Origin: Coleofasciculus chthonoplastes F2-STO-03 | GTDB lineage: Bacteria; Cyanobacteriota; Cyanobacteriia; Cyanobacteriales; Coleofasciculaceae | NCBI GenBank assembly: GCA_040222015.1 | Contig: JAVJWO010000177.1 | Span: 1 to 19,403, forward strand | Reading direction: 5' to 3' | Length of the DNA stretch: 19,403 bases | Shown: positions 2,678 through 8,574 of the stretch, in pieces | Numbering within the stretch: position 1 is the first letter of the stretch | Layout of the letters: every line of letters begins with the position of its first letter | Notes under the pieces: generated by a model | What the model was told of the DNA's origin: nothing | What the model saw: the letters and a program-made list of their open reading frames with translations, nothing else | Database searches by the model: none | Position numbers and translations under genes: made by a program

Positions 2678-4018
2678 TTATGCCGATTCTGGTTTGGGTA
2701 GGGATGACGGATGCAGCAACAATTCCGCTGTCGAGCGTTTCTCTACCATTTCCCGGGTAATCGTACAGCGAGTCACATCCTTGCGCGAGGGCAATTCGTA
2801 CATCACCTCTAGCATCAACTCTTCCACAATACCCCGCAGCGCTCGCGCTCCCGTTTTCCGCCGATAGGCTTCTTGGGCAATGGCTCGCAGCGAGTCTTCG
2901 GTAAACCCAAGCTGCACATTGTCCATCTTCAACAACTTCTGATATTGCTTCACCAAAGCATTGCGCGGCTGGGTCAAAATCGCGATCAGAGCTTCTTCAT
3001 CCAAGGGATCAACCACCGCCGCGATGGGAATACGACCGATAAATTCCGGAATCATCCCGAACTTCACCAAGTCATCGGGTTCTAAATGTCGCAGTAAATC
3101 CGCCGCCCGTTTTTCTTTAGATTGACCTTCTCCCGGCTGGATAAAGCCGATTGAGCGCTTACCAAAACGCTGTTCAATCACCTTCTCTAGACCGACAAAG
3201 GCACCACCACAAATGAATAATATATTACCTGTATCAATCTGAATGCAGTCTTGATAGGGATGCTTTCGTCCGCCCTGAGGTGGCACATTGGCAACGGTTC
3301 CCTCAAGCATCTTCAGTAACGCTTGCTGAACCCCTTCCCCAGAAACATCCCGCGTAATCGAAGGGTTTTCGCTCTTACGGGCAATTTTATCAATTTCATC
3401 GATATAAATAATTCCCCGTTGTGCTTCTTCAACATCCAAATCTGCTACCTGCAACAGCCGTAGTAAGATGTTCTCAACATCTTCACCCACATAACCCGCT
3501 TCCGTCAGCGTTGTCGCATCGGCAACGGCAAAGGGGACATCAAGTACAGCCGCTAAGGTTTGCGCCAGTAAGGTTTTACCACAACCCGTGGGTCCGAGGA
3601 GCAAAATATTCGACTTTTGCAGTTCCACCGGATCATCTGATCCAGCTTTGCCCTTTGCCTTGGCTTCAAGAAAACTTAGGCGCTTATAGTGGTTATAAAC
3701 AGCCACGGAGAGAACTTTTTTCGCATCGTCCTGACCGATGACATGTTCGTCAAGATAGTTTTTCAGTTCCCGAGGTTTAGGAATCTGATTCAGTGACAAA
3801 CCCGAAGCCCGAGTGCGACGTTTTTGTGGGGGTTCTGAGCGGGGAACTTGCTGGGGAGCCGGAGCGCTGGAATCAAGCAACTCCTCATCTAAAATTTCGT
3901 TACATAAATCTACACATTCGTCGCAAATGTAGACTCCCGGTCCCGCAATTAACTTGCGAACCTGCTCTTGAGACTTGCCACAAAATGAACATTTTAGATG
4001 GGAGTCGTATTTAGACAT
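2678..4018 (-). CDS. clpX: ATP-dependent Clp protease ATP-binding subunit ClpX
   Basis: CSFC...CDEC zinc finger, Walker [13 protein letters not shown] pore loop, Walker [12 protein letters not shown] motif, IGF loop and GARALR sensor. Confidence 0.99.
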
Positions 4019-4028
4019 AAGGAGCCTC

Positions 4029-4760
4029 TTACTTAATAGAAGTGACGGTGGCTTCGCTCTTGAGATTCTCTCGCGAGATAACTTGGTCTACTAAACCATA
4101 CTCTTTGGCTTCCGCTGCTGACAGAAAAAAGTCGCGCTCAGTATCCGTGGCGATTCTTTCATAAGGTTGACCCGTATGATACGCCATTAGCTCATTGAGC
4201 TGATTTTTATGATATAAAATTTCCTTCGCTTGGATTTCAATGTCAACGGCTTGTCCTTGGGCGCCACCTAGGGGTTGACTGATCATGATCCGGGCATTGG
4301 GCAGGGACATACGTTTTCCAGGGGTTCCCCCGGTTAGTAGAATCACGCCCATATCCGTCGCCGCACCAAAACATATTGTGACAATATCGGGACGAATCTG
4401 TTGCATTGTATCGTAGATCGCCATTCCCGCAATCACTCCCCCGAGTCCAAGAATGGGACCACCGGGGGAGTGAATGTAAAGCTGGATATCTTTGGTGGGA
4501 TCTTCGGCTTCTAAATACAAAAGCTGGGCAATGATCGAGTCAGCCACTACATCATTGATTCTTGTTCCCAGAAACACAATCCGTTCCCGCAGTAGCCGCG
4601 AGTAGATATCAAACGCCCGTTCCCCGACGCCAGACTGTTCAACCACCATCGGGACGATGTTGCTTGAATTTGAATGACTATTTGTACTAGTACTAACAGA
4701 GTAAATTTCCGGGGAACTCCAGCTTGTAAATGAGTAGTCAGGGAACTGGGATTGCAGCAT
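4029..4760 (-). CDS. clpP: ClpP-family subunit (ClpP2 position) with substituted catalytic Ser and His; predicted inactive
   Basis: VPMVVEQ...[33 protein letters not shown] and ERDFF motifs; lies between tig and clpX. Canonical AASMG reads ATDMG and MIHQP reads MISQP. Confidence 0.95.
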
Positions 4761-4979
4761 AGAACAAGGATTAAAGTATTTGTGTCAACAAGTGAATGGT
4801 TTTCCCGGCAGGTTTGAACACAGATGTTCTCCGGAAGCCTTGGGCGGGAGTTACCCACGTTAACTTCTAGTTACCATTATGCCTTAGCAACATCAATAAG
4901 TGCTGAAGATAGCGATTAAATCTTTTGCCCAAGACTGATCGCTCCTGCTTGTTCTGGGTTAACTCCCCAACCCCCAAGT

Positions 4980-6431
4980 TTATTCGCTCGTTGCCGTTTG
5001 CTCAGAAGCATCAGGGGTGGGTGATGGTTCCTCGCTTTCCTGATCAGCTGTGGCTTCAGGTTGAGCGGTGGTCTCTTCACTTGCCTCAGAGACAGATTCT
5101 GTTTCTTCTGTTTCTAGTGATCCTTCCGGAACCAGTTCAATGGTAGCGTGTTCTTCCAACCATTGAATCGCTTTCTCTTTGAGCAAATCCGACTTGACGA
5201 ACTCCCGCAAGCGTTGTGGATCGACATCTTGCCCTGCCAATTGTTTCATCACTTCCTGACATTTGGCATCCATCTGTTCATCATCCACAGTCAGGGATTC
5301 CCGTTTCGCCAGTTCCTCAAGGGTAAGGGATTGGCGCAGCCGTGCGATCGCATCAGGGCGGGAACGCTGACGCAGTTGGGGCATCATTTCCGCTGTGAAC
5401 ACTTTCTGCAGATCCATCCCATAGTTTTCCATCTGGATCGCCGTCTGGGTTAATATCGTTTGAATTTCCTGCCCAATCAGGGTTTCGGGTAGGTCAATCT
5501 CAACTTGTGCCACCAGCGCTTCGAGCAGAGCATTTTCCTTATTCGTTTTGGTTTCTTGCTCAGCTTTTTCAGCAAATTGTTTTGCCAAGGATTCGCGCAA
5601 TTCGCTGATGGTTTCCTCTTCGCTAATGTCTTGGGCGAAGTCGTCGTCGAGTTCCGGTAACTCTTTTTCCTTGAGTTCTTTGAGGGTAAGGGTAAAGACA
5701 GCACTCTGGTTGGCTAAATCCTCTCGTGGATAATCCTCCGGAAATGTCACCGACACCTCTTTGGTTTCCCCCGGTGTCATGCCCACAATTCCCTGAACAA
5801 TGTCAGCCAGAAACCGTCCTTCTTCGAGTTCTAGCTGAAAGTCAGTCGCCTCACCGCCAGAAATATCAACGGCTTCCTCTCCCTCAGGTGTCAAACGACC
5901 TTTATAATCCACAACGGTCACATCACCCATTTGGGCAGGGCGCGATTCGACGGGAATCAGCGTGGCGTGCTGAACCTGGCGTTCTGCTAAAAAATTATCC
6001 ACCGCGTCAGGATCGGGTTTTACTTCTTCAGCTTGAACACTGAGATTCCCGTAGTCTCCCAAATTGATGTCTGGCGGCACATCCACCGATGCCGAGAATG
6101 TTAACGGTTGTCCCGGCTGGAACTGACTCAGTAGTTCTTCAAATGTGGAAACTAGCTGGTAGTTGCCCAGTGCCTCAATGGTTTCTTGGCTCAGGGCGTC
6201 CCGTAAACTATTTTGTACCAAATCTTCCAGCGCCGCTTCTTTGATCCGTCCAGGACCAAGACGCTGGAGCAAAATTTGACGCGGCACCTTTCCCTTGCGA
6301 AACCCAGGAATGTTGGCAGAGCGGGCAAGATTTTGCACGACCTTCTCGTAGACCTTCTTGGTCGTTTCGGCAGGAATTTCAATTTCCAGACCGAGTTGGC
6401 TCTTGGGGAGTTTTTCCTGAGTAACTTTCAT
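4980..6431 (-). CDS. tig: Trigger factor
   Basis: MKVTQEKLP start, GFRKGKVP ribosome-binding signature, FKBP-like middle domain, acidic tail, and tig-clpP-clpX synteny. Confidence 0.99.
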   Translation of the reverse strand: MKVTQEKLPKSQLGLEIEIPAETTKKVYEKVVQNLARSANIPGFRKGKVPRQILLQRLGPGRIKEAALEDLVQNSLRDALSQETIEALGNYQLVSTFEELLSQFQPGQPLTFSASVDVPPDINLGDYGNLSVQAEEVKPDPDAVDNFLAERQVQHATLIPVESRPAQMGDVTVVDYKGRLTPEGEEAVDISGGEATDFQLELEEGRFLADIVQGIVGMTPGETKEVSVTFPEDYPREDLANQSAVFTLTLKELKEKELPELDDDFAQDISEEETISELRESLAKQFAEKAEQETKTNKENALLEALVAQVEIDLPETLIGQEIQTILTQTAIQMENYGMDLQKVFTAEMMPQLRQRSRPDAIARLRQSLTLEELAKRESLTVDDEQMDAKCQEVMKQLAGQDVDPQRLREFVKSDLLKEKAIQWLEEHATIELVPEGSLETEETESVSEASEETTAQPEATADQESEEPSPTPDASEQTATSE

Positions 6432-6850
6432 CTGTCTTCCCCCGTGGAGGTCTCCACCATAGCTGTACTCAGCTTGGTGGTGGGAGGAAACGGGGGGCAG
6501 ATCTCGACTCCGCTCGATACAAGTGGTCTAGGCAATATATCCATAACTGATTGGTTTTTCAACTGAAATACAGTGCAGGTTTTTTGATGGGAAACCTACA
6601 AAACCAACTCGGATTACTCCGGTAATGTTAGCTTAGACAATGTTAGTGGTCGGTACTTTCTCAAAAGCACTGCCTCCCAGATGACTGTTTAACTTTTGAG
6701 TTTTAGAGCTACAGACTAGCTACGCATCCGTAGGTAAGAACTTAAACACTTGCCACTAACGTAGGCATTCCTGCCTGAGTCGGGTCAACTCGGGCTATCT
6801 TACCAGCCCCCGTTATAATCGGTACTCCGATTTAACGGTGGGTTGTTGAC
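6432..6850 (-). mobile_element. Non-autonomous IS200/IS605 (IscB-type) element with omega-RNA, no tnpA or iscB ORF
   Basis: Two subterminal hairpins share one architecture on the + strand: CCACCA-t-AGCTG-tact-CAGCT-TGGTGG-TGGG (6454-6484) and CCGTTA-t-AATCGG-tact-CCGATT-TAACGG-TGGG (6810-6842). It is flanked by TTCAT (6427-6431) on one side and ends in TTGAC (6846-6850). There are no terminal inverted repeats and no target duplication. Exact ends are inferred. Confidence 0.85.
6608..6850 (-). ncRNA. HEARO / IscB omega-RNA scaffold (orphan)
   Basis: Minus strand reads GTCAACAACCC...GGGGGCT...AGCCCGAGTTGACC...CTACGTT...ACCTACGGATGC..GCTAGTCTGTAGCTCT...GTTAAACAG...GGCAGTG...AACATTGTCTAAGCTAACATTACC, the motif order I recognise for HEARO. 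Visible helices: GTCAAC/GTTGAC (6850-6845 with 6789-6784), GTTAGTGG/CCACTAAC (6760-6753 with 6649-6642), CTCAAAAG/CTTTTGAG (6700-6693 with 6667-6660), and a terminal CGGA-GTAA-TCCG GNRA hairpin. Confidence 0.88.
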
Positions 6851-6875
6851 TGACGCTTGTTTTGGAGACAACTGA

Positions 6876-6881
6876 ATTTTA
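6876..6881 (-). promoter_or_regulatory. Candidate -10 element (TAAAAT) for the omega-RNA/tig transcript
   Basis: TAAAAT on the minus strand, 25 nt upstream of the scaffold start. There is no good -35, so the support is positional only. Confidence 0.3.
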
Positions 6882-7530
6882 GCTCTTTCGGGGGGACGCA
6901 TCACGCTCACTCAACAGTAGAGCGTGAGATGAATAACGAATGATTCAACAGGTTTGTGATCATCGAGTTCTTTTAGAGGGTAATCCAAACACCTCATGAT
7001 ATGCTAGTCTAAACAACGAGTTATTTTGATTTCTAGTCATTGTTTCAGGGTATAAAAGAGACATAGATTGAATCGGTCGGGCGGGGTTTCCGTATCTGAT
7101 GATAGTACATTCAGAGCGTCTACAGCAGCGAATCTACCCCTAAACCAGCTAGGCTAGGCAAAAGGTTTCCACTGTCGAAGCCAGGAGAACTCGAACCGCC
7201 TGTTCTAGCAGACGTAGCCAACTACGTCTAGAAGCCGGGATATGAATTGATCTGCCTACTCATCAACTCTGAACGAGAACTGTTATCGTTAATTTGTCCC
7301 GTTAAGGGCAAGCCGACGGTAATATCTCAGTCAATTGGCGCGACTATCGGTCTGTCGTGTTATCACAAGACAAGAATCGCCTTTGTGCAAATCTTATGGA
7401 TTTTGTCAGAATATAGATTACATATTTCCCTTAAATAATGTTTTAAGATTAAGAAAATTTAATTGTTTTTTTTGCTACGTTAAGTCACTGTCCACAGAAT
7501 CGATGTGTTAAAAAATTGGAGGTAGATCGT

Positions 7531-8574
7531 TTGTCTAGTCAAGTTCGTGTTGCTATACTGGGCGCAACGGGTGCAGTCGGCGCCGAGTTACTGGAATTAT
7601 TAGAAAGCCGAAACTTTCCCCTTACCCAGTTAAAGCTTTTAGCCTCACCCCGTTCGGCGGGACGGACTCTCCAGTTTCGAGGCGAATCCCTACCGGTGGA
7701 AGCCGTGGGGGAGGATTCGTTTAAAGAGGTGGATTTGGTTTTAGCCTCTGCTGGGGGTTCAACTTCTAAAGCTTGGGCATCTAAAGCGGTGGAGCAGGGA
7801 GCTGTGGTGGTTGACAATTCCAGCGCTTTTCGCATGAATCCTGACGTCCCCCTGGTGATTCCTGAGGTTAATCCGGAAGCGGCGGCGAAGCATAAAGGGA
7901 TTATCGCCAATCCCAACTGCACGACGATATTAATGGCAGTAGCCGTTTGGCCCCTGCATCGGGTGCAACCCATTCAACGGATTATCGTCGCTACCTATCA
8001 ATCAGCTAGCGGTGCAGGTAGGCGGGCGATGGAAGAACTCAAAGCCCAAGCTCAAGCCATTTTGCAGGAGCAAACGCCACCAACGGAAAGCTTTCCCTAC
8101 CCCTTGGCGTTTAACCTATTCCCGCACAATTCTCCGTTAAATGATCAGGGATACTGTGAGGAAGAGATGAAAATGGTCAACGAAACCCGTAAGATTTTCG
8201 ATGATCCCCAGATCCGCATCAGTGCCACTTGTGTTCGAGTTCCTGTGCTGCGAGCTCACTCGGAAGCGATTAATCTAGAGTTTGCTCAACCCATGTCTGT
8301 CGCCACAGCCAAGGAGTTACTTGCCAATGCACCAGGAGTGCGACTGGTTGAAGATTGGCAGGCGAATTATTTCCCCATGCCGATAGATGCTACGGGTAAG
8401 GACGATGTACTGGTGGGGCGAATTCGACAAGACTTGTCTCATCCCAGTGGATTAGAGATTTGGTTGAGTGGTGACCAAATTCGCAAAGGGGCAGCGTTGA
8501 ATGCTGTACAAATTGCCGAGTTGTTGGTGGAACGAAATTGGTTAAAGCCAGCAACAGCAATGATGGCTTATTAA
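7531..8574 (+). CDS. asd: Aspartate-semialdehyde dehydrogenase
   Basis: GATGAVG dinucleotide motif, DNSSAFRM, NPNCTT catalytic Cys, QSASGAG, RAHSE, KGAALNAVQ. Start moved from 7516 to the in-frame TTG at 7531 because GGAGG (7518-7522) lies 8 nt upstream. Confidence 0.98.
   Translation: MSSQVRVAILGATGAVGAELLELLESRNFPLTQLKLLASPRSAGRTLQFRGESLPVEAVGEDSFKEVDLVLASAGGSTSKAWASKAVEQGAVVVDNSSAFRMNPDVPLVIPEVNPEAAAKHKGIIANPNCTTILMAVAVWPLHRVQPIQRIIVATYQSASGAGRRAMEELKAQAQAILQEQTPPTESFPYPLAFNLFPHNSPLNDQGYCEEEMKMVNETRKIFDDPQIRISATCVRVPVLRAHSEAINLEFAQPMSVATAKELLANAPGVRLVEDWQANYFPMPIDATGKDDVLVGRIRQDLSHPSGLEIWLSGDQIRKGAALNAVQIAELLVERNWLKPATAMMAY

Follow-up and report, generated by a model that had tools for sequence, protein, structure and literature searches.

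What kind of DNA is the 419-bp segment that directly precedes the trigger factor gene tig in Coleofasciculus chthonoplastes F2-STO-03, and can it still be moved or used? The window analyzed here is one entire contig (C177, 19,403 nt) of the source genome, which comprises 7.72 Mb in 219 contigs. An earlier note, made from the letters of this DNA, had read the segment as an orphan IscB omega-RNA (HEARO) mini-transposon. The segment is a real and recently mobile element, a protein-less ISC (IS200/IS605) derivative and thus a palindrome-associated transposable element (PATE) with an omega-RNA, and this kind of element is already in print (Kapitonov 2016; Meers 2023). The best explanation overall, which we hold to be very probable, is a 419-bp gene-less ISC derivative at the tig start codon that would depend on TnpA and IscB in trans.

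Extent of the element and empty sites

The features on which the delimitation depends are as follows.

2678-4018, minus strand: clpX, downstream of clpP
4029-4760, minus strand: clpP, downstream of tig
4980-6431, minus strand: tig (trigger factor, 483 aa; Pfam), its ATG abutting the element
6427-6431, plus strand: target motif TTCAT, reverse complement of ATGAA (tig start codon and two further bases), present at both copies and at the empty sites
6432-6850, minus strand (that of the omega-RNA and of tig): whole protein-less ISC mini-element of the IS200/IS605 superfamily, 419 bp, delimited by empty sites

The tig site was searched in eight genomes of the same genus. Exactly 6432-6850 was missing in seven (G001 and G003-G008) and the site was occupied in one, G002; a genome of another genus (G016) likewise lacked exactly this segment. 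Empty sites in the congeners read ...AACTTTCAT|TGACGCTTG..., in short ...TTCAT|TGAC... (bar, junction). In RNA/tig sense the empty site is …AAGCGTCA|ATGAAA… and the occupied site ...AAGCGUCA | GUCAAC...element...GACAG | AUGAAAGUU. The coordinates 6432-6850 are exact because the empty sites lack precisely that segment, which is the one that the earlier note had marked out. In contigs of two RNA-library runs (one each from X4 and X16) 6431 was joined to 6851, skipping the 419 bases (ends CT..AC). Contigs of DNA run X1, probably the source run, had the occupied form plus loose ends matching the flanks of the second copy on contig C178 (below), and those of run X2 had the form found in G002.

Comparison of occupied with empty sites revealed no target duplication at either locus, in keeping with the IS200/IS605 trait cited in the earlier note: native TTCAT stands before the element and native TGA after it (TTCAT|element|TGA against TTCAT|TGA). 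The element is co-oriented with tig. Its placement in the tig leader was right in that it lies upstream of the gene; ‘in the leader’ understates the precision of the insertion, for the start codon of tig itself serves as the N|ATGA target. TTCAT at 6427-6431 is also the predicted IscB TAM.

Transposon ends and filler

6439-6496, plus strand: left-end compound hairpin (inner hairpin and outer stem)
6497-6621, no strand assigned: filler in place of iscB, ~125 bp, no IscB similarity
6807-6842, plus strand: right-end subterminal hairpin, CCC-CCGTTA-T-AATCGG / TACT / CCGATT-TAACGG-T-GGG

The inner hairpin of the left end (6454-6480) reads CCACCA-T-AGCTG / TACT / CAGCT-TGGTGG and is followed by TGGG (6481-6484); the outer stem pairs CCCCCGT (6439-6445) with ACGGGGG (6490-6496). 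The core of the right hairpin occupies 6810-6838, and TGGG comes next (6839-6842). In single-stranded DNA folding, the left end reached -17.4 kcal/mol (z -4.2) and the right end -14.3 kcal/mol (z -5.4), with 0 of 200 shuffles folding as well in either case. The two hairpins with a bulged T, a TACT loop and a trailing TGGG that had been noticed by eye are thus both real folds of the plus strand. They lie 22 nt inside the TTCAT-side end (left) and 15 nt inside the other end (right). These positions and the common strand fit the IS200/IS605 arrangement, in which the left end adjoins tig and the omega-RNA is encoded at the right end, on the other strand; TnpA would read the plus strand of the window, the ‘top’ strand that bears the hairpins. 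One-strand subterminal imperfect hairpins at both ends and the lack of terminal inverted repeats place the element in the ISC group, as does presence/absence polymorphism at two loci, each empty in seven of eight congeners; the lack of any protein-coding gene between IS200/IS605-type ends makes it a PATE.

The stem of the right hairpin covaries (CCACTA/TAGTGG) in a full-length IscB element of the same genome on contig C77. On the left, the end tip and ACGGGGG recur in relatives that have different inner hairpins. The 23-nt tip, CT(G/T/C)TCTTCCCCCGTGGAGACCCCC, is 91-100% conserved across several genera (L055-L084) and partly pairs with the conserved ACGGGGG.

The filler has no similarity to the C77 element, to any other element or to any IscB gene of the genome. 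When 17 IscB-like frames from the genome were compared with 6400-6900 by tblastn, no IscB coding remnant emerged; the sole match was a frame upstream of the C77 IscB start that overlaps omega-RNA DNA. The only ORF of at least 60 aa touching the element (6213-6566, plus strand) belongs to no Pfam family, and no remnant of iscB or tnpA was found within the element. The reported lack of an IscB or TnpA frame is therefore correct, and both kinds of gene occur elsewhere in the genome. Within the filler, 24 nt (6501-6524) recur exactly at three unrelated loci, C178:124804, C93:35557 and C20:22989, as part of a longer motif (…ATCTCGACTCCGCTCGATACAAGTCGCTC…), which has the look of a short repeat dispersed in the genome.

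Omega-RNA scaffold

6622-6850, minus strand: IscB omega-RNA scaffold (Rfam HEARO, RF02033), 126.8 bits against a gathering score of 83, E 2e-26

HEARO was the sole Rfam match in a scan of the whole window. It runs from 6850 to 6622 and spans the model completely (positions 1-211 of 211), matching in sequence and in secondary structure. The central claim of an omega-RNA was accordingly upheld, with three amendments: the match is 229 nt long and not ~243 nt; 190 bp, not ~110 bp, lie between 6622 and the far end at 6432; and the scaffold is not bracketed by the two hairpins, since the right hairpin, read on the opposite strand, is the first stem-loop of the omega-RNA itself. The HEARO family reportedly goes back to Weinberg et al. 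in 2009. Its name implies an adjacent HNH-endonuclease ORF, whereas none stands beside the window copy; the missing downstream IscB ORF makes this an orphan copy and has no bearing on the identity of the RNA.

Compensatory changes were present in 30 of 62 predicted pairs of an alignment of nine sequences (the window scaffold, its C178 twin, the C77 scaffold and six relatives from other genomes, all six above the cut-off). Several of them are private to the window lineage, in which all helices are kept, and the differences from the C77 scaffold are largely pair-preserving.

The genome has 35 HEARO matches, 26 of them above the cut-off, and none was found in 14 control genomes. Linkage to IscB was assessed by comparing HEARO coordinates with those of matches to RRXRR, the IscB N-terminal domain. 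A full-length IscB frame follows five of the 26 over-threshold copies (C214, C77, C12, C31 and C193; 114.5-136.2 bits) and truncated RRXRR fragments follow three (C23, C95 and C5); the other 18, two of them at contig ends, lack a neighbouring RRXRR match. Contig ends also hold HEARO-like matches whose sequence type is distinct (C169:11-178, C16:11-178, C57:9-200, C1:11-236, C63:36668 and C33:42250); these probably represent a repeat family that breaks the assembly.

These figures bear on the strongest alternative, that the element is an inert hitch-hiker: a MITE-like IS200/IS605 derivative moved by TnpA only, tolerated at tig, whose omega-RNA is a leftover that IscB does not use. We regard this as possible, with clearly less than an even chance. 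No iscB is linked to the element, the nearest IscB-linked scaffold (contig C77) is 82% identical, and the 18 copies with no adjacent RRXRR match indicate that decay of iscB is the common fate. Set against this, the window scaffold, at 126.8 bits, falls inside the range of the IscB-linked copies, and its helices have all been kept through private compensatory changes. The window and C178 scaffolds differ at three positions within 229 nt, too few to show decay or constraint. We return below to the preferred reading, an element served in trans.

Second copy and in-place decay

The earlier note had proposed a search for dispersed copies with the same ends, and BLAST against the genome found one: C178:70136-70550, 415 bp, 97% identical, with unrelated flanks (match C178:70131-70553 against window 6427-6853). 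It lies between a metallophosphoesterase gene and miaE, at a site that is empty in seven of eight congeners (...GGAAATTCAT|TGAATTTCAC...) and occupied in G004. The window and C178 copies have the same architecture, the same filler and the same junctions. Since the same mini-form stands at a second locus, it moved as a mini-element.

It is therefore highly improbable that a full-length IscB transposon at tig lost iscB by local deletion and that the mini-form never moved. In its favour are the truncated RRXRR fragments at three other HEARO copies; against it, an identical layout recurs at an unrelated locus and the filler resembles no IscB gene of the genome. Movement as a gene-less element is the reading retained.

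The sequence TTCAT|TGA occurs at both insertion sites (window 6427-6431/6851-6853; C178:70131-70135/70551-70558). At the second of them the empty sequence forms a perfect palindrome, GAAATTCA-T-TGAATTTC, perhaps through an extended target preference, perhaps by chance. An IS200-type tnpA 2 kb from the C178 copy (C178:67639-68004; L091 1167-1614) was considered as a source of transposase and rejected: it is interrupted by a stop codon and unrelated, and two host genes, encoding an M48 peptidase and the metallophosphoesterase, lie between.

Site-specific alleles in two further species

Between the window and C178, the alleles differ at 10 aligned positions: six substitutions and, close to the left end, a deletion of 4 nt. 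Each allele was then compared with its counterpart at the same site in a congener. At the tig site, the G002 element differs from that of the window by inversion of 15 inner left-hairpin bases and has no other difference in 419 bp; its flanks are 98.5% identical on the left (532 nt) and 95.6% on the right (750 nt), with an identical tract at 6364-6934. At the second site, the G004 element (C41, L101) differs from that of C178 by two small deletions, with no substitution in 415 bp, and the adjoining 1,500 nt on the left differ by about 4%.

Both insertion alleles thus have zero base substitutions between species, against 1.5-4.4% difference in their flanks, a contrast that an expectation of uniform rate overstates because difference-free tracts occur elsewhere in the same G002 alignment (4424-5091). 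That each site-specific allele is common to two species fits recent transfer of occupied alleles by homologous recombination, and the sequence comparison suggests such transfer between species.

The inverted segment, seen in G002:C34 (L046) and in run X2 at the position of window 6460-6474, gives an inner hairpin CCACCA-AGCTGAGTACAGCTA-TGGTGG in which the bulged T and the loop are on the opposite strand. This may immobilize that copy, locking it in place. The occupied G004 allele lacks 10 native bases (TGAATTTCAC) beside the right end, which is the would-be guide-coding segment.

Guide and trans-acting factors

The first base of the scaffold (6850) is the last base of the element, the boundary 6850/6851 being set by the empty sites. 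As the scaffold starts exactly at this boundary, we infer that the guide comes from flanking DNA; we take its length to be 16 nt.

6851-6866, minus strand: native tig leader immediately 5’ of the scaffold, predicted to supply the guide (from the boundary and the available text of Meers 2023)

For transposition the element would need a Y1 TnpA in trans, and for homing an IscB. The genome has 17 Y1_Tnp matches, at least six of them full length and uninterrupted, and 18 RRXRR matches, about 11 of them full length. The earlier note had proposed a search for relatives bearing iscB or tnpA; the first kind exists, in the C77 element with its related ends, and for the second no tnpA-bearing element with similar ends was found. 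When 22 ends of 11 elements were compared with 10 tnpA neighbourhoods by blastn-short, there were no hits at E ≤ 0.01. The 425-aa IscB of C77 matches the solved structures of TbaIscB (E 3e-39) and OgeuIscB (E 9e-26); with the two scaffolds only 82% identical, cross-recognition of the window RNA by this protein is hypothetical. Five full-length RRXRR (IscB/IsrB-like) frames have no HEARO beside them (C216:111694, C178:89892, C179:45659, C162:35690 and C103:8250) and may use a different type of omega-RNA.

The cycle proposed here is modelled on the published scheme of Meers 2023 (10.1101/2023.03.14.532601). According to its available text, the right end marks the limit of the omega-RNA of IscB elements, a HEARO-like region that precedes iscB, and PATEs frequently specify omega-RNAs that can be served only in trans. 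A Y1 TnpA encoded elsewhere would read both plus-strand hairpins and excise or paste the element in single-stranded form. Transcripts started in the tig promoter region would contain the native-leader end (guide, 6851 onward) fused to the scaffold. An IscB from a full-length relative, the nearest being on C77, would bind this guide-scaffold RNA and cut tig alleles from which the element has been excised, where the leader sequence lies next to the TAM ATGAA (scarless donor joint). An occupied chromosome copy would then restore the element. We put the chance that the element still works in this way, with excision and pasting by TnpA and homing by IscB in trans, at about even.

Comparison with known elements

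Cyanobacterial ISC transposons insert at N|ATGA with no duplication, according to the available text of Kapitonov, Makarova and Koonin 2016 (PMC4810608). By the same text, the window element is like the ISC1-1_MA type of Microcystis aeruginosa in its subterminal imperfect hairpins, in having neither terminal inverted repeats nor duplication, in insertion exactly 5’ of ATGA, in a 5’ terminus GT... (iscB sense), in its cyanobacterial host and in predicted mobilization by a Y1 transposase in trans. It differs in size and content: those elements are 1.3-1.7 kb and encode IscB, whereas the window element is 419 bp with no protein gene.

PATEs with omega-RNA, in the available text of Meers 2023 (10.1101/2023.03.14.532601), are likewise protein-less, have left and right ends and draw their nuclease from another IS; the IscB elements treated there share the right-end-bounded omega-RNA and the dependence on outside transcription. 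The PATE omega-RNAs described in that text are acted on by TnpB, in Geobacillus, whereas the window RNA is of IscB type and from a cyanobacterium.

Within the genome, the C77 element (C77:45219-46885, 1667 bp) is the closest full-length relative, with an 82% identical scaffold, a TACT-loop right-end hairpin, a related left-end tip and an ATGAA flank. It too stands directly before a start codon, here of the gene for a 1314-aa PAS histidine kinase. It has an intact IscB and no counterpart of the 125-bp filler; in the window element the reverse holds.

Consequences for tig

The start codon of tig is taken as true because Pfam Trigger_N aligns from the first residue (residues 1-149, profile positions 1-142) and is followed by FKBP_C and Trigger_C. 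The gene is single-copy, with one Trigger_N match in the whole genome. Insertion has made the tig leader longer by 419 nt and has placed the left end of the element just upstream of the start codon. In the predicted RNA fold, a compound stem (-45.2 kcal/mol, z -2.3) pairs the G-run of the left end and also the first two bases (AU) of the tig start codon; on this model the insertion could hamper translation of tig rather than be neutral. A replacement ribosome-binding site in the left end was considered, since a run of five G lies 7 nt before the ATG, and is not claimed because that run is predicted to be paired and because another left-end subfamily (…AATTTTCG|ATGA) has no such run. The contig of run X4 (record 14, RNA library), which has the empty form and 99% identical flanks, reaches 341 nt upstream of the tig ATG (6851-7191), which hints weakly that the native tig leader is long, unless DNA was carried over.

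It is very unlikely that the host has domesticated the omega-RNA as a cis-regulatory part of the tig-clpP-clpX leader. The co-orientation and abutment, the fold that occludes the start region and a consensus promoter-like site in the filler directed at tig (TTGAAA-17-TATATT, 6562-6534, minus strand) would all suit such a role. However, the element is missing in seven of eight congeners and in a contig with 99% identical flanks, a near-identical (97%) element sits at an unrelated locus, and the counts of promoter-like sites (one found, 1.8 expected) and of terminators at 6350-7550 are not above those of shuffles. The reading that the earlier note had named as its refutation, a tig leader of the ordinary conserved sort that fits the covariance model by chance, can be dismissed given the HEARO E value of 2e-26, 35 genome matches against none in 14 control genomes, and the precise empty sites that most congeners display.

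Abutment on start codons

Among 14 HEARO elements of the genome whose left end could be placed, by the end point of homology and the nearest ATGA (uncertain for three, C165, C50 and C18), the flanking ATG opens a host gene in sense orientation in seven:

C120:3442: ClpP-family protein
C134:63855: MFS transporter
C33:40633: ComFB-domain protein
C77:46886: 1314-aa PAS histidine kinase
C48:2402: PsbN (47 aa, profile positions 1-43 of 43)
C5:35721: 143-aa protein with no Pfam family
Window 6431: tig

Homology end points were used for this census because a genome search with the left-end tip (18-mer, ≤4 mismatches) returned 70 hits, of which only the window’s own copy was convincing. As background, at least 100 codons are opened by 12.1% of 67,767 ATGA sites, by 9.6% of the 16,429 ATGA sites whose 5’ neighbour lies outside crude ORFs, and by 13.0% of ATGAA sites; six of the 14 elements do so (p = 0.001-0.004, on a crude gene map and a hand-curated set).

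The left-end query was present in 23 of 52 genomes of the family. The tip was carried by 20 of 30 loci from these genomes, with TCAT flanking all 20 related left ends and TTCAT 15 of them. Judged by frame length alone, 10 of 18 distinct family sites open at least 100 codons, and another reaches its contig end at 86.

For IscB elements, a tendency to point the same way as the gene upstream is reported (Meers 2023, 10.1101/2023.03.14.532601, available text), whereas in the window it is the start codon of the downstream gene that is abutted. The term start codon does not occur in the available text of Kapitonov 2016 (PMC4810608), and among the titles and abstract openings of the papers listed by a literature search no report of start-codon abutment by IscB elements was found.

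Targeting of N|ATGA may be no accident but a strategy: sense landing on start codons, at about half of the sites here, would let a host promoter transcribe the external guide. Between species, the gene-less omega-RNA form may travel as a site-specific allele; having entered by recombination, it may then be driven by IscB in trans across the numerous chromosome copies that a polyploid cyanobacterium carries, an idea prompted by the substitution-free insertion alleles in diverged flanks. Taken jointly, landing at N|ATGA as a strategy and the gene-less form as a guide-only gene drive parasitizing the nucleases of other elements make a speculative reading that we consider doubtful. Start-codon abutment and the identity of alleles across species are the parts worth following.

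Significance

Here nature provides a clean case of an OMEGA element at its most reduced, consisting of a guide-RNA scaffold and transposon ends only, with both boundaries proven by empty sites, where the tig-clpP-clpX proteostasis genes begin. The locus offers a setting in which three questions can be tested: whether IscB nucleases serve orphan guide RNAs in trans, whether a host promoter supplies the guide, and whether landing on start codons, seen in seven of 14 sister copies, reflects target choice or selection. For annotation, it means that an apparently ordinary intergenic leader can conceal a structured RNA gene of 419 nt.
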